DNA of 42,995 nucleotides, from the IMG/VR virus record IMGVR_UViG_3300029705_000072. One strand, written 5' to 3'. The first letter of the stretch is position 1, and each line of letters starts with the position of its first letter. The stretch comes from a virus. Taxonomy: Duplodnaviria > Heunggongvirae > Uroviricota > Caudoviricetes. The translations under genes and the position numbers were made by a program. Under the pieces are notes generated by a model. It was not told the DNA's origin. It was given only the letters and a program-made list of their open reading frames with translations, and ran no database searches. Below are positions 16,107 through 42,995 of this stretch, one piece after another.

Positions 16107-16136
16107 AAAAAGAGACATAGCGAAAAGCTACGTCTC
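16107..16136 (-). terminator. Intrinsic terminator just upstream of TMP
   Basis: Minus strand GAGACGTAGC-TTTTC-GCTATGTCTC-TTTTT. Confidence 0.7.
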
Positions 16137-24384: not shown

Positions 24385-24420
24385 GTTGCACTCGGTTTTC
24401 CGAGGACTATTCAGTTGTTA

Positions 24421-26001
24421 CTATCTGAAGCCGTACTTCTGGAACAGACCACCATACAGTTCTGTTTCAGCAGGGACATCAGCCTGTTCCACCTTAATCT
24501 TAGGTGCTCCGCCAGAGAGACTAAACTTTTCAATAGAAGTCTGTCTTCCACGGATTGCATAGCATTTTTCTTCCAGCTCTTCGACGGAATATTCTTTGTG
24601 GTCTTCCTTCAGCTTATCAAATGCTTCTACGCCACTTAAGGATTCGAATCTATCCAGCACTTCCATGCGTTGTTCTTCGACCTTTGCATTTTCGGTTTCA
24701 GCCTTAAAATCACGCAGAGATTCTACTTCATCAGACAATGCCTGATATTTTTGGGACAGATCTTTAAACACGTCTTCGAAAGCAGCGGTTTCATCTCCTT
24801 CGTCGAAGTCGACGATTTCGTACTTCTTGCGCTTCTTGCTTTCGAAGTCGATGATAACTCTGTCACCGTTCATGGAGTACTTGAAGCCATACAGCTTCCA
24901 GTCTTCTACGTCGTGGCAGTATACCTCGGACAGCTCGTAGTCATAATTTACGTAGTAGTACTTGAACATTTCACCAAAGCAAGTTTCTACTGTGATCTGG
25001 TGGAGTGCGTCAAGAAGTTCCATTTCAAATTCACTTGAAAGTGTAAACCTTTCCTCTACGACTTCGTCTTCGGGTTCTTCGGCGGGTTCGTCGACAGGAT
25101 CCTCTTCTTCAGATTCTTCGTCTTCCGCGCCGCCATCTTCCTCAGACCCTTCTACGGGTTCTTCTTCAGGTTCCTGAACGGGTTCTTCCTCGGTCTGGTC
25201 TTCAACGACTTCAAACTTCTTACGTAGTTCTTCAACGGTTACATCTTCCAGATTAAAGTCCAGGCTTTCCTGAGAAATGCCGAGTTCTGCTAACAGTGCA
25301 ATTTTTTCATCCAATGCCTTTTCTCCTCCTTCCATCGAAATTTGGGTATGGACAACCTCAGTGGAGGGTTGTTCTTTTGAAAATTCTTCCTTAAATTCCC
25401 GCATCATTTCAGCAAGTTCTTGCTTAAAGCTATCATGTGAGAACAGTTGAACCGAAGCCGACTCGTAGCACGGCTCTGCTGATCCTAGAAGGCAGAATGC
25501 TGTAAACTCAAAGTCGCTTATATGATAAACGCCGTCTACCATTCCGCCGCTTTTCACTGTAATCTCCATGCTTTCGTCTACGATGCCGTCAGCCTCGATT
25601 TTTCTGTATGCCTCCTGACGCTTCCAAAGGATTACATCAGTGCAAAGATACTCGTGGATGCCAGATTCGTCTTCGATTTCCTCCCACCATGTGCGTGCGC
25701 TTTCTGGAACTACGCCAACAGGGTGGGTGATGTTTGCTAGATACATACCTCCATCCGCAGAGGTTACTAACTCTACGTCATGTGAGCCTATCATATCTGT
25801 ATCTCTGTCGTATCTACATACAACAGGGCAGTTATATATGGACGGCATGCATCTTTCAAAAGTCTCCTTGCTGATGAAGCTGTTATTGCGGTTCTTACCT
25901 ACATACGCAACCCGAAGGACGCCCGAGTCGAATGACTTGTTTCGCTCAACCAGGTTCGTAATGCCGGAGGAGAACACAATACTCATATTTCTTTTACTCA
26001 T
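24421..26001 (-). CDS. Prohead protease-scaffold fusion (YonD-like)
   Basis: DESMEI...FEFTAFCLLG..EPCYESA protease motif, acidic linker, C-terminal helical scaffold. Confidence 0.85.
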   Translation of the reverse strand: MSKRNMSIVFSSGITNLVERNKSFDSGVLRVAYVGKNRNNSFISKETFERCMPSIYNCPVVCRYDRDTDMIGSHDVELVTSADGGMYLANITHPVGVVPESARTWWEEIEDESGIHEYLCTDVILWKRQEAYRKIEADGIVDESMEITVKSGGMVDGVYHISDFEFTAFCLLGSAEPCYESASVQLFSHDSFKQELAEMMREFKEEFSKEQPSTEVVHTQISMEGGEKALDEKIALLAELGISQESLDFNLEDVTVEELRKKFEVVEDQTEEEPVQEPEEEPVEGSEEDGGAEDEESEEEDPVDEPAEEPEDEVVEERFTLSSEFEMELLDALHQITVETCFGEMFKYYYVNYDYELSEVYCHDVEDWKLYGFKYSMNGDRVIIDFESKKRKKYEIVDFDEGDETAAFEDVFKDLSQKYQALSDEVESLRDFKAETENAKVEEQRMEVLDRFESLSGVEAFDKLKEDHKEYSVEELEEKCYAIRGRQTSIEKFSLSGGAPKIKVEQADVPAETELYGGLFQKYGFR

Positions 26002-33551: not shown

Positions 33552-34322
33552 TTAGTTTTTTAAAAGTTCACGATGTCGCATAACCGAGTTGATTCTCTGC
33601 TTTGTTCCGACTTCGACGGCGCAAGCCGGGCAGTACTTCTGGTGTCTACCCTTTGATTGATCACGTCTCTTCAATGTTATACCGCAGTTCTCACACTCAA
33701 AATACTCACCAAGTCCGTAATACTTGTGGTACTGGTGACCCAGGTTTCGGAAGTCGCTTATATGTAATTCGGTTTCATCGTCGCCCATGAAGAGCACCTG
33801 CACATTAAGGTTGTCAATCTTCTTGGAGAACTTTATGAAACCCAGTTCTCTCAGCTCGTTAAACATGAGCCCCTGACGCTTGATTGACGTGTTGATGTTT
33901 GCCATCTGCATGATTTCGTTATCCGGAGTGTTTACCCAGTGGTTGTTTTTCTCGGACGCAGCGTCCCAATACTTCGCCACACACAGCAGCGTAAACGCAA
34001 GCCTGCGGAGCTGAATGCCATCCAACATGCTTATCTTTTCCAGTTCACTCTTGGTAATGTTCACTCCGTCCAACTGAATGCACGGGTACTTTATTGAATT
34101 CTTTGCAATACGGTCTAGCGTATCGGACCAATGCACTAGTGATGCATTCGGATCGCATTGAAGTAGGAAGGAATCCAAAAGGCTTCTAACTTCTTTCTTG
34201 CTGTACTGATTCTCGTAGTAGTATTTAGCAACACGATTAAGTGTCTCTGTTGGTTTGCGACCAAGGTCGCGATTGTCTATCATGGCTTCCGCCCATTCAT
34301 ATTCGTTAAGAACTATACTCAT
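33552..34322 (-). CDS. Hypothetical protein with winged-helix-like segment and C-terminal Zn finger
   Basis: CENC...YCPAC; TAATG-coupled to RNAP stop. Confidence 0.75.
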   Translation of the reverse strand: MSIVLNEYEWAEAMIDNRDLGRKPTETLNRVAKYYYENQYSKKEVRSLLDSFLLQCDPNASLVHWSDTLDRIAKNSIKYPCIQLDGVNITKSELEKISMLDGIQLRRLAFTLLCVAKYWDAASEKNNHWVNTPDNEIMQMANINTSIKRQGLMFNELRELGFIKFSKKIDNLNVQVLFMGDDETELHISDFRNLGHQYHKYYGLGEYFECENCGITLKRRDQSKGRHQKYCPACAVEVGTKQRINSVMRHRELLKN

Positions 34323-35425
34323 TAAATCTCTCCCATTTTTACCGTCTTTAGACTAAATCTTTCGCCACCAAAGTAAATGTCTCCGTCTGGATCCATGGTG
34401 GGGAAGGTTATCTCGTTGTTATTTCTATCAAGCAGCGCTTCGATGATTTCATCTCCACAAATCTCCCAGGCAAAACGCTTTGTGCCGTTGCGTCCGTAGC
34501 AGAGATCAAGAATTATGTTACAAAGAGCATATCTATTGGTGCAAATTTTGTTACACTCCTGTATGAACTCGTTTCGCATATCCACTAACTTCTGATAGGA
34601 TTCGTCGGCTTCCAAGCGTTCGTAATTGGCGAACACCGCATAGCTTCTAAGTCTCTTACTATACCCCTCGTACAAACGCATTATGGCGCTGTACTGACTC
34701 TTGCTATATTCGGCGTCGTTCTTCATGATTGTGTAATCGAACTCAACAGATGCATTTCTGCGTCCAAGATATCTATCGAACTCTCTTTCAAACCGTCGGC
34801 ATATGCGGTTCATAACACAATTGTTTGTGCTTACCGGCATACTGCTGTTGTAATACCGTATAAACTCGCGCTGTCTTTCGGTTAAATTCTCTGGCGGAAT
34901 CGCCATCAGCTCTTCCACGTTCATCTGGAATTCTCTGATTGCGTTCTTGTTCGTGTTCTTTATGTATGTGTTGTACTGCTTCATGAGAGCAGGGTATATG
35001 ATTCGCATAAAGTACGGCTTCTTATCCGCAACAATCTTTTGATAGAAATGTCGTTTCTCTGGATCTTCGATTTTGTTTGCTGCATGACGGTCGTGCCATT
35101 CCTTTGGCATGGGCTGTGCTATAATGCCTTTTGCCTTGTCGATCGCGTTCTGCTGAAAAAGCTGACCGCATTTAATTCTGTAATCCAGCTCGTTATACTC
35201 AGGGCTTCCTTTTTCGTACTGTGCTTGCACGTCGAACATGGAAGTGATCCAATTTGTTGTCTTGCCGATATCGTCACCGAAACTTGCCATATTCGAGGAG
35301 ATCAAATGGTCTTCGGTTACGATTACTTTCTTTGCTTTGCGCTGAACGCACATGATTGCGGGTAGTTCTTTTAGATTTCTCACCAAAACATCATTGTCGG
35401 TGAGCATAACTAGATCCCCGTCTTT
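34322..35425 (-). CDS. yonO: YonO-like single-chain RNA polymerase, exon 2
   Basis: Starts AAA GAC GGG GAT (KDGD) right after intron terminal G; 367 aa to stop. Confidence 0.88.
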   Translation of the reverse strand, partial: KDGDLVMLTDNDVLVRNLKELPAIMCVQRKAKKVIVTEDHLISSNMASFGDDIGKTTNWITSMFDVQAQYEKGSPEYNELDYRIKCGQLFQQNAIDKAKGIIAQPMPKEWHDRHAANKIEDPEKRHFYQKIVADKKPYFMRIIYPALMKQYNTYIKNTNKNAIREFQMNVEELMAIPPENLTERQREFIRYYNSSMPVSTNNCVMNRICRRFEREFDRYLGRRNASVEFDYTIMKNDAEYSKSQYSAIMRLYEGYSKRLRSYAVFANYERLEADESYQKLVDMRNEFIQECNKICTNRYALCNIILDLCYGRNGTKRFAWEICGDEIIEALLDRNNNEITFPTMDPDGDIYFGGERFSLKTVKMGEI

Positions 35426-36443
35426 CCTTAATACCACATGTCACCATGTGGAGTAGACTATCTCATAACGTCACTATGTGACGTCCTGGGCGCTTCCCGC
35501 CCTGGAATCTCACCAGGACAGTACCCGGTTCATCGGCGTGCCATTCGGTTTAGCCTGTATCCGGTAGTCGTTACACCTTACCACTAGTTTCCCAGCGGTC
35601 TTGGCACGGTATTGTCTGTATTATGTCTATTCAAAACGAAATCTGTATCCAAGATACATTGTGTTGTTTTTAGCGGCTCTTGAAATATGAGCAGATACAT
35701 TATATGGGTGCCTAGACATAGTTGCCCCAGAAGAAATAAGGTGCTCTGCACACTCTTTTATGTACCCGAAACTTATTTCGGTACCGTCGCTAGTTATCAT
35801 TGTAACTGGAGTAGATCGTCCGTTCTTGATTCCTGGCCTTGATTGCTTCTGAATGGACAGTTCGCGGTTCTCTGCGTACTTTTTATGTAGAACGCTATTG
35901 CCGTAATTTGGATTATTCTTGCCAGCCATCGGCCTTGTTTGTGTTACATGTCTTTGATGTGACATTGTATGGTGGATATTTTCAATGCGCGTTGTCCACT
36001 CTAGATTACTCGGCGTATTGTTTAGTCTATTGAAATCTATGTGATTGACTTCTGCGCCGCAAAAATATCCGTCGAGGTAAGTAAGCGCAACGAGCCTATG
36101 AACAAAAAATTCCTTGCGATGGCCATTTTTTGAAAGGCGAACTTTTGCATATCCGTCGTCATTGATTACTTGCTTAATAATACGACCTTTTCTTACGGCA
36201 CTCTGTCCGTCCGATCTTGTTACGAGTCGATCAACGCCAGATACTACTCCAGTGTCGCTTATCTGATACCACCCCTCGTATCCGGGTATATCTTTCCAGA
36301 CCATACCAACACCTCCTTTCTATAATAGTTGAATAGATTGTTGTTTACAGATTTTTACCGTTAGCGGCCTCGCGGCCACACCCTGCATGTGCAAGTTCAC
36401 CCAGTTTTCACTACGCCATCACTGGCGTAGGCGACAAATGTTT
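35426..36443 (-). mobile_element. Group I intron (1018 nt) with homing endonuclease, in RNAP active-site codons
   Basis: P1 CGAU|AA with UUGUCG; P3 CUGGGUG/CGCCCAG; P4 ACGGU/ACCGU flanking the ORF; P7 GACUA/UAGUC; P9 CCACAUG-GUGA-CAUGUGG; terminal G 35426. Confidence 0.92.
35627..36304 (-). CDS. Intron-encoded NUMOD4-HNH homing endonuclease
   Basis: WKDIPGYEGWYQIS (NUMOD4); VHRLVA...VNHIDFNRLNN..NLEWTT..EN (HNH); NUMOD1-like C-terminus; SD AAGGAGGTG. Confidence 0.92.
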   Translation of the reverse strand: MVWKDIPGYEGWYQISDTGVVSGVDRLVTRSDGQSAVRKGRIIKQVINDDGYAKVRLSKNGHRKEFFVHRLVALTYLDGYFCGAEVNHIDFNRLNNTPSNLEWTTRIENIHHTMSHQRHVTQTRPMAGKNNPNYGNSVLHKKYAENRELSIQKQSRPGIKNGRSTPVTMITSDGTEISFGYIKECAEHLISSGATMSRHPYNVSAHISRAAKNNTMYLGYRFRFE

Positions 36444-38069
36444 ATCGGCTCCATTCAGCGCGTGGGCGGCAGTATCCCACGAATTCATAATCGTACACGT
36501 ATTCATGTACTGATACCACTTGCTTGCCTCGTCGCTTCTGTGCGGACGAACAAGCCTAATATTATTGTGGCAGGTCATTGGAGCACGGTAGCACGCGAGC
36601 TTCTCCGCGTTACCCGAGCACCAGTATTCGTTGTAGATTTCTCCCGCCTTCAAAAGTCCGGTAACCTCTAGCCCGAAAATGCTCTGGCAAAGAGAGTAGG
36701 GGTCTCCGGATATGATCGAATAGTTGCCGTGGACTTTAAGTACCCCCACCTTAGCTTCGTCTATTCGATTGCGGATCATATGGAATATCTTTTCCTGTAC
36801 GAAAGAGTCGTTCATCATCTCCGGCTCTATCATGATCGCCTTGATGAAGTCGTTCTGCAGACGGTCTATATTATCCTCGGTCATCCCGAACCCGCGAAGG
36901 AATAGGGCGGTCTTGTTGATGTCCGCGTAGAGCACATCCTTGATTTCGTCCATGGTGGGAGCAATAAGCTCTTCGATATCGTCATCGGTAAGGTCGTAAC
37001 TCTGAATGAACTGGTAGTTTAGAGCACGTTCTTTTTCAAGTTCCTTCGGGCAGGTCTTGGCGACGCCGAACGAATAACCGTTCTCGTGGCAGTTTCTCAG
37101 GTAATCGTCGCAGCTCTCGTAACTATCCCATAACTTCAACATGGAAGTGGTTAGAATCATTTCAACATTTCTAATGTCTACCTCGTTGCCCCAGGCGTCT
37201 CGCACAATATACTCTCCGGCAACCTCTTCGGCAAAGCGGTGGAAGTCAAAGGTGAACACCATTCCTTTTTCCCATGAATTTCTGGTGTTCGCTCCGGCGA
37301 TCATGTAGTCCAGATTAAGTTCACGGCTCCAACGTTCGGCTAGGGCAGGGGCGATAAGTCCATATCCGTCTGATTCATCCAATTCGATATCGTAGTCCTT
37401 CATCTCCTTCATGATTGGTTCGTATGTGCCTTCGTCGTTCAGATAAATAACGTCTGATTTAAATGAGGTCTCACAGTCGTTCACCACCAGAATCCCGTTG
37501 GGATCTGATACCGGTATGGACGCGCTGCAGGTAAGTGCCTTATACGCTTCGAGCTTGGCTGGTACCAGTTCTTTGGAAAGGTCTCTTCCGTTATCTATCC
37601 GCCGTCTGATTTCATCTATATGTCGCTCGCTCACAAACACTATCGTTCTGGTCTTTACACCGCCGTTAGTGCCGAGCAGCCTCTTGTACTTGATGCCGTT
37701 TACGAAGAAACCCAGACACGCTCTCGCGTAGTCCTTATCCTTGTCCATGATTACGCACATATAATCCGGCTTGAACTGCAGTTCATCCAGCTTGGTATAC
37801 AGCGCCTTGACCTGCTTGCGGTTCTTTGGGCTATTGGGTTCCTTACGCAGTCTTTTGATTTCGGACTTGATTTCCCTGGCGGCTTCATCCGCGTCGGTAA
37901 TTCCGTTCAGCTCGTCTAACCATCTTAAAACCTGGCTGTCGGCGAGAGATATAACCTCGTCGTTCTTTCTGGCCTCCGCGATAGGGAGGGTAAGTCTCCA
38001 CTTGGCTTTGCGTAGCCGGCTGCTGTGGAGTTTGAATATATACTTTTGGCACGCTAGTTGTTTAGCCAG
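36444..38069 (-). CDS. yonO: YonO-like single-chain RNA polymerase, exon 1
   Basis: Double-psi-barrel motifs SDGYGLI, R...KG, YRAP; ends NGAD; start placed at CTG 38069 (SD GAGGTG); alternative GTG 38168. Confidence 0.85.
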
Positions 38070-38118
38070 TGCAACCACCTCGCTTTCTTGTTGCACAAAA
38101 AATAAAAAAGACGCGTTT

Positions 38119-38310
38119 TTACTGGTAGATTCCTTCTTGGTATTGGAACCATTCTCTGTAAAATTCACGTCTTTGTGTTTCTATGTAATCGTCCTCGTCG
38201 AATTCTTCGCTCAGCGGACTGAGATATTTACACTCTTCTGCGACCCGGCATAGGTATTCTTCGGGGCAGTCGTAGCATTTACGGCCTCTTGGCTTAATTG
38301 ATTTTCTCAT
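38119..38310 (-). CDS. Small Cys-rich protein (63 aa)
   Basis: SD AAGGAGG, TAATG-coupled to helicase; CYDC...C...C. Confidence 0.75.
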   Translation of the reverse strand: MRKSIKPRGRKCYDCPEEYLCRVAEECKYLSPLSEEFDEDDYIETQRREFYREWFQYQEGIYQ

Positions 38311-39521
38311 TACTCGTTTGTTCCTCCTTGTTTCATTTCTTCGATCCAGTTCAGCAGCAGGGTTCTCATGCGCTTACTGGGTATGTAGATGTTAATTGGT
38401 TTCTCGTCTCGAATGGCACTTCGCCAGATCCACTGGAGCATTTCGCCCAGGGCGAACTTATCCGGATCTATCTTAATTCCTCTGGCTCCAAAGAACTTGG
38501 TGAGGTTTGGGTCTGCGAACCGATTAGCCATATAGGCAAGATCTCTTTTGTCCCGAAATTCATTAGTTGCGCGACTGGCGATTTGTAAAAAGTTTTGCCG
38601 GTATCTTCCGCTTTCATAAAGAAGCTTGTCACGGTGGTCGATGAAGCACGTCCACATTCTGGAGTTGGAAGTAGATTCAGTAAGACGGTGGAAGTAGTTA
38701 TCGAGATTGCTTCGCAACTTTTTAATATCCGAATGATTCTTACCGCGTCTTAAGTACCATGCCTTTGAAAGAGCTGTTCGACTGTCACCAATTGAATTCA
38801 TGTTCTTGCTATCGAGAATATTGATCAGCTTGCTGTAGTCGATCGGTGGCGGGCAATCTGGTTTGTCCGAGAACTTATATCCCTTTTCGTCCGTTTCAAT
38901 TCCAACGATACGGTAGTCGAATCCGAAGTACTCAAGGTACCCCTTTTGGTACTGACCGTCAAAGAGGTAAGTTAGCATAAACACATCCTCAAACGATCTT
39001 ATGATCGCCGGATTGAGTACTTGCAGCAGAGCGCTATCTCTTATATAAAGGCTACCAGTCATGGCAATATCACGATAGGTCGCCAGAGCACCAAAGAACT
39101 CTGGGTCGTCCCAGGTTACGCGTCCTTCTTCGTCAAGTGTGGCAAACTCATTCTGTACGACTTCCACCTCTCTCTTACAAGCCTGGATCTTTCGGATGGC
39201 GCTAATAGACTCATCCAGTATTAATGTGTAGTTCTTCTTGCGGATAAGTTCGACCGCTTCTTCGTCAATCAGATTAAACAGTGAATGTGACGCAGCGATG
39301 TTTTGTCCGTACCGCAGGTAGAACTTTAGTTTGGATGACTTGCTGTAACTTTCGTCATCCGGCTGGTCGAAGTCGCAGTATTCGCAGATGCGATCCACCT
39401 CGGTGAGAAAGGGGGTAATGTAGAGAAACCGTTTCTCGCTCTTATGCTCATTCATGTACCGTATGGCCGCAGAGGACTTGCCGCGTCCCATGCGAGCATC
39501 TACTACGGTGATTTGATTCAT
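38310..39521 (-). CDS. SF2 (DEAD-like) helicase / P-loop NTPase
   Basis: Start moved to ATG 39521 (SD AAGGAGG); DARMGRGKS, LILDES, QWIWRSAIR. Confidence 0.75.
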   Translation of the reverse strand: MNQITVVDARMGRGKSSAAIRYMNEHKSEKRFLYITPFLTEVDRICEYCDFDQPDDESYSKSSKLKFYLRYGQNIAASHSLFNLIDEEAVELIRKKNYTLILDESISAIRKIQACKREVEVVQNEFATLDEEGRVTWDDPEFFGALATYRDIAMTGSLYIRDSALLQVLNPAIIRSFEDVFMLTYLFDGQYQKGYLEYFGFDYRIVGIETDEKGYKFSDKPDCPPPIDYSKLINILDSKNMNSIGDSRTALSKAWYLRRGKNHSDIKKLRSNLDNYFHRLTESTSNSRMWTCFIDHRDKLLYESGRYRQNFLQIASRATNEFRDKRDLAYMANRFADPNLTKFFGARGIKIDPDKFALGEMLQWIWRSAIRDEKPINIYIPSKRMRTLLLNWIEEMKQGGTNE

Positions 39522-39566
39522 ATATTTAATTCCTCCTTTCAAATGGAAACTAATGGTAAATTTAAG

Positions 39567-39835
39567 GTGGCATAATATGAAAAGTGGGTATTTTAGCCAC
39601 CAAAAATGGTTGAAAAGTGGGTTTTCGTAAAAATGCCACAAAATTTTTGCACGCTAAGGAGTCCAGTCTGTAACCTACAACATTTTCAGTCTTGCTATGA
39701 ACAGACTGTCTTACGAAAAAGAGGAAGAAGATTAAAGAAAAATATCTTGTTCTCTTTTATATAATAGAATTTCAAGCTGTGGCATTGAAATTTCAACGTT
39801 TCCCGGTGGGGTATGCCACAAAAGTACTGTGGCAT
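39567..39835. repeat. Cluster of ATGCCACA motifs (4 perfect, 1 partial) plus tgaaaagtgggt x2
   Basis: 39633-40, 39778-85(rc), 39813-20, 39828-35(rc), partial 39567-73; tgaaaagtgggt at 39578-89 and 39611-22. Confidence 0.85.
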
Positions 39836-39881
39836 TTTTGTTTTTATCGTCACCAAAAAGAGGAGTTAAACGAGCTGTATT

Positions 39882-39900
39882 TATTCAGTTGTCAAGGTAC
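39882..39900 (-). promoter_or_regulatory. boxA-like element GTACCTTGACAACTGAATA
   Basis: 18/19 identical to 41321-41339 on the opposite strand; no -10 box at sigma-A spacing; function inferred. Confidence 0.55.
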
Positions 39901-39914
39901 GAGAGGGTGAGGTC

Positions 39915-40742
39915 TTACTGCGCTACAACTGCTTCAGCCTCATATAAATTACTATCTAACAAGTAGTTACAAGTTGTACTACCAAGATTCAGTTTACGGT
40001 ACGCTTCATCAATTTCTTCACTGGTGATACCAATATAGTCAAGGGTTTGACCGGAAGATGAATGACCAAATATCTTTTGCAGCAACAGAAGCTTTCGAGG
40101 ATCGTTACCACTCATTACCATCTGGTGATAACCGAAGGTTTTACGAAGAGTATGAGTAGATACTTTAGCACCGATACCTAACTCTTCGGCAATGCCTTTC
40201 AAGATACGATCGATAGAGTTACGATGAATCGGTTCGTTACCGGTGGCGTTAACACTTTCGGAACGGAACAGGTAATCATCAAGTCTCACACCAGGAGTAT
40301 TCTCCAGGTAAAGAGTAACTGCTTCGACTACAGCATTATTTATAGTAATGTAACGATTACGCTTTGTCTTTCTGGTGTTACTTGTTTTTTTCTCCAAAAT
40401 GGGGAAGGACTGCCGAAAGGCAAAATGTTCATTGATCAGCTGGGAGAAGCGAAGTGTTCTAAGGTCACTTACACGAAGACCGAAGTTGATTCCTACAATG
40501 AACAGCATATTGTCACGGTATCTCTTGTTGTCGATCAGGTATTTGGAGATGCGTAAAATATCTTCCATACTCTTGATCGGTTCAGCTTTGTGCTCAGTTA
40601 CTACATCGATATGAACTTCCGAAGCAGCAGGAGCTATGATACCGGATCTCAGTTTTCTGTTGTTTTCTTTTAGACTGGAGATGTCGATGGCGCCAGAAGC
40701 GGCTGTACGATTACTGAAGTCTACACGAATGACGTTTGTCAT
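39915..40742 (-). CDS. Tyrosine recombinase (catalytic-domain type)
   Basis: GINFGLRVSDL, EKKT, HTLRKTFGYH, FGHSS...TLDYIG; SD GGAGGTG. Confidence 0.92.
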   Translation of the reverse strand: MTNVIRVDFSNRTAASGAIDISSLKENNRKLRSGIIAPAASEVHIDVVTEHKAEPIKSMEDILRISKYLIDNKRYRDNMLFIVGINFGLRVSDLRTLRFSQLINEHFAFRQSFPILEKKTSNTRKTKRNRYITINNAVVEAVTLYLENTPGVRLDDYLFRSESVNATGNEPIHRNSIDRILKGIAEELGIGAKVSTHTLRKTFGYHQMVMSGNDPRKLLLLQKIFGHSSSGQTLDYIGITSEEIDEAYRKLNLGSTTCNYLLDSNLYEAEAVVAQ

Positions 40743-40781
40743 GTGAACACCTCCAATATTTAACTATCTTTCGTTGAGTAT

Positions 40782-40810
40782 AGTATATCAAATTAGGGTA
40801 TCCGTGTCAA
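40782..40810 (-). promoter_or_regulatory. Sigma-A promoter for the leftward arm
   Basis: TTGACA (40810-05), 17 bp, TATACT (40787-82). Confidence 0.85.
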
Positions 40811-41207
40811 GCGATTTTTAAAAATAAATTAAAAAATAGGGTACTGACAAAATACAACCAAAATAACACGTCTGACGCAAAGCTTTTAGCGCTGTTATCG
40901 AATATTTAAAACAAAATAAAGAGAAGCAAAAAATAAAAATCACCGGATCCGATGCTTGATGATGGGATTTCTGGTGATCTTTTTTACACGTGGAAAAAGC
41001 GTTGAAATTTGAACGAGTTTGAAAAAGGGGGAGGCTTGGGAGATGGAGTCACTACGGAGCAGTAAGACGGGATAAGGGTGGCCGCAGACCATAACCACCC
41101 CCATCTGTGTTGCATTCCGCAGAATTGCACACCAACGGAACGGCGAAAAGGTGGGCAAGATGGCGAAAAAAGTTCCGTGCGGCATGGCTTGAATTGAAAT
41201 CAGGGTA

Positions 41208-41236
41208 TTGACGGAACATGGCGGCTATGGTAGTGT
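41208..41236 (+). promoter_or_regulatory. Candidate sigma-A promoter for the rightward arm
   Basis: TTGACG, 17 bp, extended -10 TGgTAGTGT. Confidence 0.5.
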
Positions 41237-41320
41237 ATGAAGTGAGAAAAGGCCACTCACCCACCCACCCACCACAGCCGCTCACCACGGCAAGGGCAAG
41301 GCTCACAGCCACAGGCCACC

Positions 41321-41339
41321 GTACTTTGACAACTGAATA
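41321..41339 (+). promoter_or_regulatory. boxA-like element GTACTTTGACAACTGAATA
   Basis: Partner of 39882-39900; lies between candidate promoter and first gene. Confidence 0.55.
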
Positions 41340-41350
41340 CAGAAGTTAAA

Positions 41351-41389
41351 ACACAAGAAAAGCCCGTCAAGACACCACCATGACGGGCT
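41351..41389 (-). terminator. Hairpin in leader; terminator for antisense (minus) transcription
   Basis: agcccgtca-N11-tgacgggct preceded on + by an A-rich run. Confidence 0.55.
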
Positions 41390-41423
41390 AAGGTCCACGG
41401 ACCACCACAGAAAGGAAAAGACC

Positions 41424-42803
41424 ATGAACAACAACAGAGTAACACAGAACACTACCACCGTCAACCGCTTTGAAGAGGCAAAGGCCGCCTTTGAAAAGGC
41501 TTACAGCCGCTTTGTAAAGGATGGCACGGATTGCACGGCCGAATTGATGACACTTGCCGAAGCCGTGGCCCGTTCCGTTGTAAACAAGTGTATCGACCCA
41601 CAGCGCAAGACCGCCGCACAGCGCGACACCATCAGCAACAACGGACACAGCCCGGCTCTGGTGGCCATCCGCCGCGACATCCGCAATGACCTCGCCGCGC
41701 TCGAAACCGTGGCAAGACTTGCCGAAGAAGAGGCCGAAGCCGTAGCCGCAGACTCCGCCGCCGCCGCTGTACATAGAGGAGCCAAGAAAGCCCTTGCCAA
41801 GGCAAAGGAAGAAGCCGAAGCCGCCGCCAAAGCCGCCATTGATGGCAAGACGGACAAGGGCAAGACCGCCGCCCTAAAGCGCGCCAAAGCCGCCGAAGCC
41901 CTTGCCGCTAAGCGTGCCGCCGCCGCACACGCCGAAGCCGTACGCAAGACCGAAGCCATGACCAAGGCCATGCGAGAACGGCTTGGGGATGGTATCGACC
42001 TTGTAAACGAAGCCGCCGCCGCCCTGTGGGAATTGGCCGCGGAACACGCGGGCCGCAGAGGATGGCTCGACCGCGATTATCTTGTACGCGTACTTTCTCG
42101 CCGCGTGTTCGTCAGCATGGACACACAGCCCGAATGGAAAGAGCGCGAAACCTGTGCCATGACCGAAGCAACTCGCGCCGTTCGCAGACTCGTAAGCAAC
42201 ACCGCCGCCGTGCATACCGACCCGAAAAATTCCTACTCTTATATCGAAGACCTTGCCGACGATGAAGAGGGAAACGGGCTTGAAGTCATTTACAGAAGAC
42301 TCGGCAAATTCTCCGACCTTGGCGGCACGGATTCCAACGGGAATTATACCGCCGACGAAGCAAGCGCGCGTCTTGTCGATTCCGTTGTTGCTTCCATCGG
42401 TATGACCGCCACCGAAGCCCGCGCTTTGGCTCTCCGCCTTGCCGGGTGTGGCGTAGAAGAAACCGCCCGCCGCATGGGAGTTAATTCGCGAACTACCCGT
42501 TTCCATCTGCAGAACATCGGCCGCAAACTGGTAGCATGGGCAAAGGCCGGAGAAACCGCCGAAGCCGAAACTATCATTTCCGCACTCGAATCCGCACACC
42601 TTGACGAACTTGACACCGCCGAAGCGCAGGGCAAGGCTCGCCCCGTTGTTCAGTACACCATGGATGGGAAAGAAGTAGCCGCGTACGGCTCTGCCGCCGC
42701 CGCCGCTTTTGATACTGGAATCAACAAAGGCAGTATTTCCGCCGCCGCAAGCGGCAAGCGCGAAAGCGCGGGCGGCTTCCGTTGGAAGTACATGGAATTT
42801 TAG
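41424..42803 (+). CDS. Sigma-factor-like HTH protein with Ala/Lys/Glu-rich insert and C-terminal NUMOD1 domain
   Basis: SD GAAAGGA; TEARALALRLAGCGVEETARRMGVNSRTTRFHL (region-4/LuxR-type HTH); RPVVQYTMDG...ISAAASGKRESAGGFRWKY (NUMOD1). Confidence 0.65.
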   Translation: MNNNRVTQNTTTVNRFEEAKAAFEKAYSRFVKDGTDCTAELMTLAEAVARSVVNKCIDPQRKTAAQRDTISNNGHSPALVAIRRDIRNDLAALETVARLAEEEAEAVAADSAAAAVHRGAKKALAKAKEEAEAAAKAAIDGKTDKGKTAALKRAKAAEALAAKRAAAAHAEAVRKTEAMTKAMRERLGDGIDLVNEAAAALWELAAEHAGRRGWLDRDYLVRVLSRRVFVSMDTQPEWKERETCAMTEATRAVRRLVSNTAAVHTDPKNSYSYIEDLADDEEGNGLEVIYRRLGKFSDLGGTDSNGNYTADEASARLVDSVVASIGMTATEARALALRLAGCGVEETARRMGVNSRTTRFHLQNIGRKLVAWAKAGETAEAETIISALESAHLDELDTAEAQGKARPVVQYTMDGKEVAAYGSAAAAAFDTGINKGSISAAASGKRESAGGFRWKYMEF

Positions 42804-42810
42804 AACATCG

Positions 42811-42842
42811 AAAAACAGCCCTTTGCGGGGCTGTTTTTTTTA
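42811..42842 (+). terminator. Bidirectional intrinsic terminator
   Basis: aaaaacagccc-tttgcg-gggctgttttttttt. Confidence 0.9.
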
Positions 42843-42995
42843 TTGCCGTGTAAATTCTTGTCCGTGCCCGTTTCGTCGCTCTGCGGGGAGATTTTAGGGC
42901 TTTACGGACACCAAACACCGACCCACACGGGCAAGCACAGCCACACAGCAGGGCTTCCCCCCGGGTTGCACGGTACACGGTGGAAACACCGACCC

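Follow-up and report, generated by a model that had tools for sequence, protein, structure and literature searches.

The 42,995-nucleotide (nt) stretch of viral DNA analyzed here, hereafter the window, covers positions 14226-57220 of a 57,238-nt IMG/VR record (IMGVR_UViG_3300029705_000072) that is rated 48% complete. Near one end of the window, two copies of a short element resembling boxA, a signal known from ribosomal RNA (rrn) operons, face away from each other across an AT-rich spacer, a recombinase gene, and a pair of divergent promoters. We refer to the copies as boxA-L and boxA-R. The features of the locus are as follows.

39882-39901, minus strand: boxA-L, CGTACCTTGACAACTGAATA, on the predicted leftward early transcript, starting 14 nt past the recombinase stop codon.
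41320-41339, plus strand: boxA-R, CGTACTTTGACAACTGAATA, in the 5′ leader of the first rightward gene, at about +77 from the predicted start site.
40782-40810, minus strand: leftward sigma-70-type promoter from the promoter scan, TTGACA-17-TGnTATACT (11 of 12 matches), which precedes the recombinase gene and then boxA-L.
41208-41236, plus strand: putative rightward promoter, TTGACG-17-(TGg)TAGTGT, read by eye and below the scanner threshold.
39915-40742, minus strand: first leftward gene, encoding a 275-residue tyrosine recombinase (PF00589, 3.7e-18; phrog_216), between the promoter and boxA-L.
38310-39521, minus strand: yonV-like gene (phrog_2467), next after boxA-L, its 403-residue product 36-38% identical to SPbeta YonV.
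34322-38168, minus strand: gene for a YonO-type phage RNA polymerase, split by an HNH-carrying intron, farther along the leftward transcript.
41424-42803, plus strand: first rightward gene, encoding a 459-residue protein that family scans describe as sigma-region-4-like/NUMOD1.
41243-41319, plus strand: C-rich, G-poor, almost T-free leader stretch (C 44%, G 21%, T 5%) from the predicted start site to boxA-R.
41361-41389, plus strand: 9-bp GC-rich hairpin with no U-tract, 22 nt past boxA-R (z = -4.5 for the 126-nt leader).
39813-39835, minus strand: palindromic hairpin, 46 nt past boxA-L, one of several TGCCACA repeats.

Each copy therefore lies on the sense strand of one of two divergent predicted early transcripts and is followed by a hairpin, an arrangement that a first-pass annotation of this DNA, made from the sequence without database searches, had described correctly. 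On the right, the element sits 85 nt upstream of the ATG at 41424; on the left, it falls within a 393-nt untranslated stretch that separates the recombinase gene from the yonV-like gene. The element contains the hexamer TTGACA, which we considered as a -35 box and rejected, as no -10 box is present; the promoter scan and reading by eye both bear out the annotation's remark that neither TTGACA has a -10 at proper spacing.

The phage is SPbeta-like, as the first-pass annotation had it, in the broad sense that homologues of both YonV and YonO are present. A 585-residue open reading frame represents the N-terminal part of the YonO-type RNA polymerase, and its nearest annotated relatives are found in Clostridium phage c-st and the Enterocloster bolteae phages PMBT24 and CB473P*. 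The host probably belongs to the Lachnospiraceae or a closely related group. We found no close DNA relatives among GenBank phages, and the yonV-like protein, used as a single query against viral contigs, gave no match. The YonO polymerase transcribes the late genes of SPbeta (PMC5467207), which leaves the early genes, including the polymerase gene, in need of the host RNA polymerase.

A repeat finder reports the two copies as arms of a 20-nt inverted repeat (CGTACYTTGACAACTGAATA), complementary at 19 of 20 positions (95%). The 19-nt matches claimed earlier at 39900-39882 (minus) and 41321-41339 (plus) are thus confirmed and in fact extend to 20 nt. The pattern GTACYTTGACAACTGAATA, in which Y stands for the single base that differs between the copies, has exact matches in the window only at 39882-39900 (minus) and 41321-41339 (plus); allowing up to three mismatches adds no further match, and shuffled sequences lead us to expect 0.01. 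No additional copy of the 19-mer occurs elsewhere in the whole 57,238-nt record. Local alignment with 60-nt flanks shows that the likeness between the two arms ends at 20 nt. The element itself is not palindromic, and an Rfam scan found no family at either boxA site and no pemK motif in the window.

The core of the element had also been said to recur before terminators at 24408 and, in part, at 16135. The letters are there, but neither site holds up as a boxA. At 24408-24421 (minus strand), only the 3′ 11-mer ACAACTGAATA is shared, which does not include CYUUGA, the core that related phages conserve, and retains the half that varies among them; moreover, 27 relatives lack this cassette where the same two genes meet. 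We therefore rejected it as a third boxA. At 16135, the likeness amounts to an 8-mer, and since chance alone would yield about 1.3 of these in the window, we dismissed the site as a chance match.

Comparison with bacterial genomes places the element among rrn boxA sequences. Its 16-nt core (CTTTGACAACTGAATA) has at least 120 exact matches in bacterial genome contigs, and among the matches listed, G occupies position -3 in 108 of 117 and T occupies position -1 in 96 of 117, which gives the classic boxA GNUCUUUGA.AA. The core lies 92-210 nt upstream of the start of the 16S gene, and it is also found between 16S and 23S genes, two instances of which (loci L215 and L230) were confirmed with Rfam. 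The resemblance to Firmicutes rrn boxA that the first-pass annotation had put forward extends to an exact match of 16 nt with rrn boxA in many phyla.

The phage copies read G-T-A-C where most of these bacterial matches read G-N-T-C. In rrn operons fetched from Lachnospiraceae, the leader boxA is G(T/C)A-CCTTGATAACTGAACA and the spacer boxA is GTA-CCTTGAAAAC(C/T)GCATA, with both CCTTGA and CATTGA cores represented. The comparison with host rrn leaders that the annotation had suggested, run here at the level of this family, shows that the rrn copies share the first 13 nt of the phage element as a pattern (GYACCTTGAnAAC), including the A at position 4, and differ from it in the 3′ half. By this comparison, the A at position 4 of both phage copies is a host-lineage variant, that of Lachnospiraceae rrn operons. 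Genes for NusB and Rho are present in Lachnospiraceae genomes.

Both copies, read as RNA, begin G-U-A-C-Y-U-U-G-A-C-A-A and fit the boxA consensus at G2, C5, Y6, U7, U8, R9, A10, A12, and A13. Transversions at positions 2, 5, or 6 of the lambda boxA abolish NusB/E binding (PMC3177189), and the phage copies keep all three of these positions as well as the pocket base U8. On these comparisons, the assignment of the element as a boxA-type sequence is well supported.

The 16-mer also occurs in at least 116 viral contigs, compared with 23 for a control read backwards. We defined genes as open reading frames of at least 200 residues, since the complementary strand of the motif has no stop codon in any frame and shorter antisense reading frames are artefactual. 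With this definition, among the viral matches listed that have G at -3, the gene downstream is co-oriented in 45 cases and opposed in 5, and 2 matches fall within genes, whereas 13 of 16 control matches are genic. None of the viral matches listed adjoins rRNA. The motif is thus strand-specific (45:5 among these matches), the outcome that favors the annotation's proposal over a strand-independent one. In three unrelated viral settings (contigs L009, L012/L097, and L035), the 16-mer stands a few tens of nt upstream of tRNA-like genes, as it does in cellular rRNA/tRNA operons.

To learn how the element is distributed among related phages, we aligned homologues of the 459-residue first rightward protein, which gave 51 related viral loci; an identical protein is also encoded on another, 107-kb contig. 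In 37 of the 51 loci (33 distinct sequences), an element of the form G(C/A)ACCTTGAnAA... is found on the minus strand at the position of boxA-L, always in the same orientation, and two further loci (L294 and L296) carry a one-base variant of it. Among 14 diverse members that we aligned, the invariant columns are exactly G.ACCTTGA.AA, amid non-coding sequence that is otherwise variable. Where a recombinase gene is present, the element lies 12-25 nt past its stop codon, in the place of boxA-L.

Four relatives (L306, L324, L326, and L330) have no recombinase gene and keep the element, which indicates that it is part of the leftward early leader, independent of the recombinase. Consensus sigma-70 promoters precede it by 40-110 nt in these four. 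For the first three, the distance is 40-75 nt, the promoters are of the kind TTGACA-17-TGTTATAAT, and the yonV-like gene follows. In the cultured Enterocloster phage PMBT24, a variant of the L330 type (98005-98023, minus strand) stands about 110 nt past a TTGACG-17-TATTAT promoter, before the first gene of a leftward operon. When SPbeta and PMBT24 were scanned with the 16-mer and a degenerate boxA pattern, matches were at control level except for this one PMBT24 site, the positional analogue of boxA-L. An annotated 67-residue hypothetical coding sequence of PMBT24 (OQ326496.2, 97986-98189; L398, 4487-4690) overlaps both the leader with boxA and a consensus promoter and is unlikely to be a real gene; the element can flag spurious gene calls of this kind in such leaders.

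These relatives bear directly on an explanation in which the inverted 20-mers are crossover sites of the tyrosine recombinase that they enclose, so that the 1.4-kb segment with the recombinase gene and the promoter region would be an invertible switch. The geometry invites this idea, as inverted repeats flank both a PF00589 recombinase gene and a promoter. However, the relatives that have the recombinase carry a single copy of the element, which makes inversion impossible there, and the four relatives named above, together with PMBT24, retain the element with no recombinase gene at all. No consistent dyad-symmetric core of two arms and a spacer is seen around the element, and its identity with a host rrn signal would be unexpected for a private recombination site. 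A search of metagenome and viral contigs for inversion junction patterns returned no near-identical contig and none with either flank plus the repeat. We regard an invertible switch as highly improbable.

The element might otherwise act as DNA, either as an operator for a phage regulator (the sigma-like/NUMOD1 protein, for example) or a host DNA-binding protein, or as a remnant of an insertion sequence (IS) terminal repeat. The region is rich in palindromes and repeats, including the TGCCACA repeats and two occurrences of CGTTGAAATTTCAACG, and the exact 19-mer is present in both terminal inverted repeats of an IS4-like element of Lachnospiraceae (see below). Yet a DNA site has no need of a sense strand, whereas the orientation is constant in the 37 relatives and strongly biased among unrelated viral matches; the element is not palindromic; and identity with the boxA of both rrn leaders and rrn spacers would have to be a coincidence. 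The IS remnant in particular was rejected, because the identity is limited to 19-23 nt and the orientations are opposite, with the phage copies pointing outward and the IS copies inward. A DNA-level function of either sort is, in our estimate, very unlikely.

We favor the interpretation, at a probability of roughly 65%, that both copies are rrn-type, N-independent loading sites for Nus factors on early transcripts made by the host RNA polymerase, one of which leads to the gene for the YonO-type polymerase. In such a scheme, the host enzyme would start at the divergent sigma-70-type early promoters and transcribe each boxA, and host NusB-NusE(S10) would bind the nascent boxA RNA. With NusG and NusA, this pair would then render the elongation complex resistant to termination, especially by Rho. 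On the left, transcription would be carried from the recombinase gene across the 393-nt untranslated, hairpin-bearing spacer into the yonV-like gene and the intron-interrupted polymerase gene; on the right, the C-rich untranslated leader and the first regulator gene would be protected. No N-like phage protein would be needed. Nus-factor binding, antitermination, and any role for Rho are what we infer from the sequence comparisons. A phage's use of host machinery along these lines is believable, and lambda and T7 already offer known cases.

Several observations weigh against this interpretation. The counterpart of boxA-R is absent from all 51 relatives, so that the paired arrangement suggested by the first-pass annotation is not a trait of the family, and boxA-R could be a recent duplicate with no function. 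In SPbeta and in distant relatives (YonV identity of 33-39%), no element rises above control level. Position 4 is A in the phage, compared with U in Escherichia coli and most of the bacterial consensus, although the Lachnospiraceae rrn copies share the A. The presence of the same 19-mer in both IS terminal repeats is not something that an RNA signal obviously predicts. Finally, there are few strong intrinsic terminators in the first 7 kb downstream, and a target for antitermination is not evident: the first strong minus-strand terminator beyond boxA-L is 7.7 kb away, at 32180-32160. The annotation had invoked many terminators that the phage would have to read through, but the 27 terminator-like sites that we found are not clearly enriched over the 19.2 ± 4.1 in shuffled sequences.

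The missing rightward counterpart raises the question of whether boxA-L alone is functional, with boxA-R a recent neutral duplication or a product of gene conversion in an inserted segment of leader. The rightward promoter and T-poor leader are conserved in the relatives, and in one of them (L308), the promoter reads TTGACA-17-TGgTAGTCT in the same arrangement as the putative promoter in the window; these leaders are about 100 nt shorter, and boxA-R sits in the extra 100 nt or so. In addition, boxA-R is identical to boxA-L at 19 of 20 positions, whereas the left copies of the relatives differ in their 3′ half. On the other hand, the likeness is confined to the 20-nt element, where a plain duplication would leave homology in the flanks; boxA-R follows the conserved promoter and has the sense orientation; and the exact rightward 19-mer recurs at other Lachnospiraceae loci. 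That boxA-R is a non-functional, neutral duplicate or conversion product, with boxA-L the sole working copy, is a fair possibility but strikes us as unlikely.

Nus-factor loading at the two copies would have precedents in systems that differ from this one in several respects. The nut site of lambda consists of boxA, a spacer, and boxB, and acts with the N protein and NusA/B/E/G; boxB is a 5-bp stem with a GNRA-like pentaloop located 8-9 nt past boxA, and the lambda boxA is a weakened variant. The layout in the window matches lambda nutL/nutR in having one boxA per divergent early transcript, the left one past the first gene, with a hairpin after each. In contrast, the phage hairpins (22 nt away on the right, 46 nt on the left) combine a 9-bp stem with a loop of 11 nt and 5 nt, respectively, so they are not boxB-like, and the phage boxA copies are of the full rrn type. 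No arginine-rich, N-like antiterminator was noticed among the annotated neighbors, small open reading frames not having been searched. The placement of one boxA on each divergent transcript, as the first-pass annotation had it, stands, but a nut system of the lambda type is not supported.

The rrn operons provide a closer parallel. In these operons, NusB-NusE binds boxA as part of the antitermination complex (PMC3177189, PMC4807359, PMC6614797). The phage element shares with rrn boxA the letter-identical 16-nt core, found in many phyla, and the Lachnospiraceae prefix, and both are single-stranded signals on the sense strand downstream of sigma-70-type promoters, with no phage factor required. 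They differ in that the phage copies precede protein-coding genes and that neither the boxB-boxA-boxC order nor a leader-trailer helix was found in the phage. Cellular targets of boxA outside rRNA, including suhB, rpsJ, and others, are known (Baniulyte et al. 2017, PMC5725501) and resemble the phage in carrying boxA in the 5′ untranslated region of protein-coding genes. The suhB boxA is repressive, blocking translation and then bringing about Rho termination (PMC5725501).

Downstream of its early host promoters A0-A3, bacteriophage T7 carries a boxA that has been defined genetically (PMC3709561, citing Savalia et al. 2010). T7 resembles the phage studied here in possessing its own RNA polymerase and in placing a host-type boxA on the early transcript of the host polymerase that leads to the polymerase gene. 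T7 is, however, a virulent coliphage with a single-subunit polymerase of the T7 type and one early direction, whereas this phage is an SPbeta-like phage of Clostridia with a YonO-type polymerase and divergent transcripts. Our literature search found no description of boxA in Firmicutes phages or SPbeta-like phages, in keeping with the novelty that the first-pass annotation implied, although that novelty is reduced by the early boxA of T7 (PMC3709561).

The principle is thus not new. If the copies are functional, they would add large SPbeta-like phages from gut Clostridia to lambda and T7 of E. coli as users of a hijacked host boxA, with a logic like that of T7, in which a termination-resistant early transcript of the host polymerase delivers the phage's own polymerase gene. 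The element also varies with host lineage (GYA-C in Lachnospiraceae versus GNU-C elsewhere), and boxA variants could accordingly mark the hosts of uncultured phages. To our knowledge, antitermination in the rrn operons of Firmicutes has been little studied, and the element offers a defined, testable handle on this poorly characterized process.

Within Lachnospiraceae, the element is not limited to phages. The 19-mer, with up to one mismatch, occurs in 78 of 401 Lachnospiraceae genomes and in none for the reversed control. We read 30 of these loci; none is an rrn operon, and recurrent types of leader are found among them. At five loci in Lachnospiraceae chromosomes (L408, L411, L415, L417, and L422), a GC hairpin (GCCGC..GCGGC) is followed by GTACCTTGA(A/C)AACTGAATA, and a ribosome-binding site and ATG lie within about 25 nt after boxA, so that the hairpin-then-boxA order is like that in rrn operons.

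A multicopy IS4-like element of Lachnospiraceae, which encodes a 428-residue transposase (DDE_Tnp_1), carries the exact 19-mer GTACTTTGACAACTGAATA in both of its terminal inverted repeats of about 70 nt, pointing inward.

Lachnospiraceae genome G001, contig C72 (loci L283/L284), also the ends of contigs C14 and C29: IS4-like element.

At six loci in Clostridia or Enterococcus (L120, L153, L175, L180, L182, and L191), the 16-mer lies 135-160 nt upstream of the pemK RNA motif (RF02913), and a pemK-type leader with the boxA 16-mer is also present in three viral contigs (L051, L091, and L107). By these positions, the pemK RNA may form part of a boxA-led leader of mobile elements, and boxA-like leaders seem to be common on the mobile elements of Lachnospiraceae. 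We raise tentatively the idea, possible though on balance doubtful, that phages, the IS4-like element, and the pemK leaders, which resemble those of conjugative elements, share GTAC(C/T)TTGACAACTGAATA as a leader signal of mobile elements across Lachnospiraceae; in its 3′ half, this sequence departs from the rrn copies found in that family. If so, foreign DNA would load host Nus factors and thereby keep transcripts with little or no translation from being silenced through Rho, and the boxA pair of this phage would be one instance of a shared strategy.

The sequences around the two copies show some further features. The leader stretch at 41243-41319 is like a Rho-loading (rut) site in composition only, and we would take the comparison no further than that. 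The left hairpin at 39813-39835 is followed by a T-run on the plus strand, which makes it terminator-like for the opposite direction; at its place, the relatives have GGACAC-N5-GTGTCC with symmetric substitutions, and an operator fits this palindrome as well as an RNA hairpin does. In relatives L295-L343, GGACAC-N5-GTGTCC is kept about 15-35 nt past boxA (the form in the window, within 39560-39850, is ATGCCACA...TGTGGCAT), and after it come another palindrome, CCTTGTG.CACAAGG, and a TATAAA box, again with substitutions that preserve the symmetry. The conserved palindrome after boxA could be an operator, a terminator for the opposite strand, or an RNA hairpin. The near-palindrome CGTTGAAATTTCAACG occurs at 39785-39801 and 40997-41015, on both sides of the recombinase gene, with an 88% match, and this pair is not mirror-symmetric with the boxA pair. 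Lastly, the rightward arm (40960-42995) has a GC content of 57% and a strongly T-poor coding strand, compared with 42-47% GC elsewhere; the same contrast is seen in relatives (L308, 4600-5000), which marks it as a trait of the family and not an assembly chimera.

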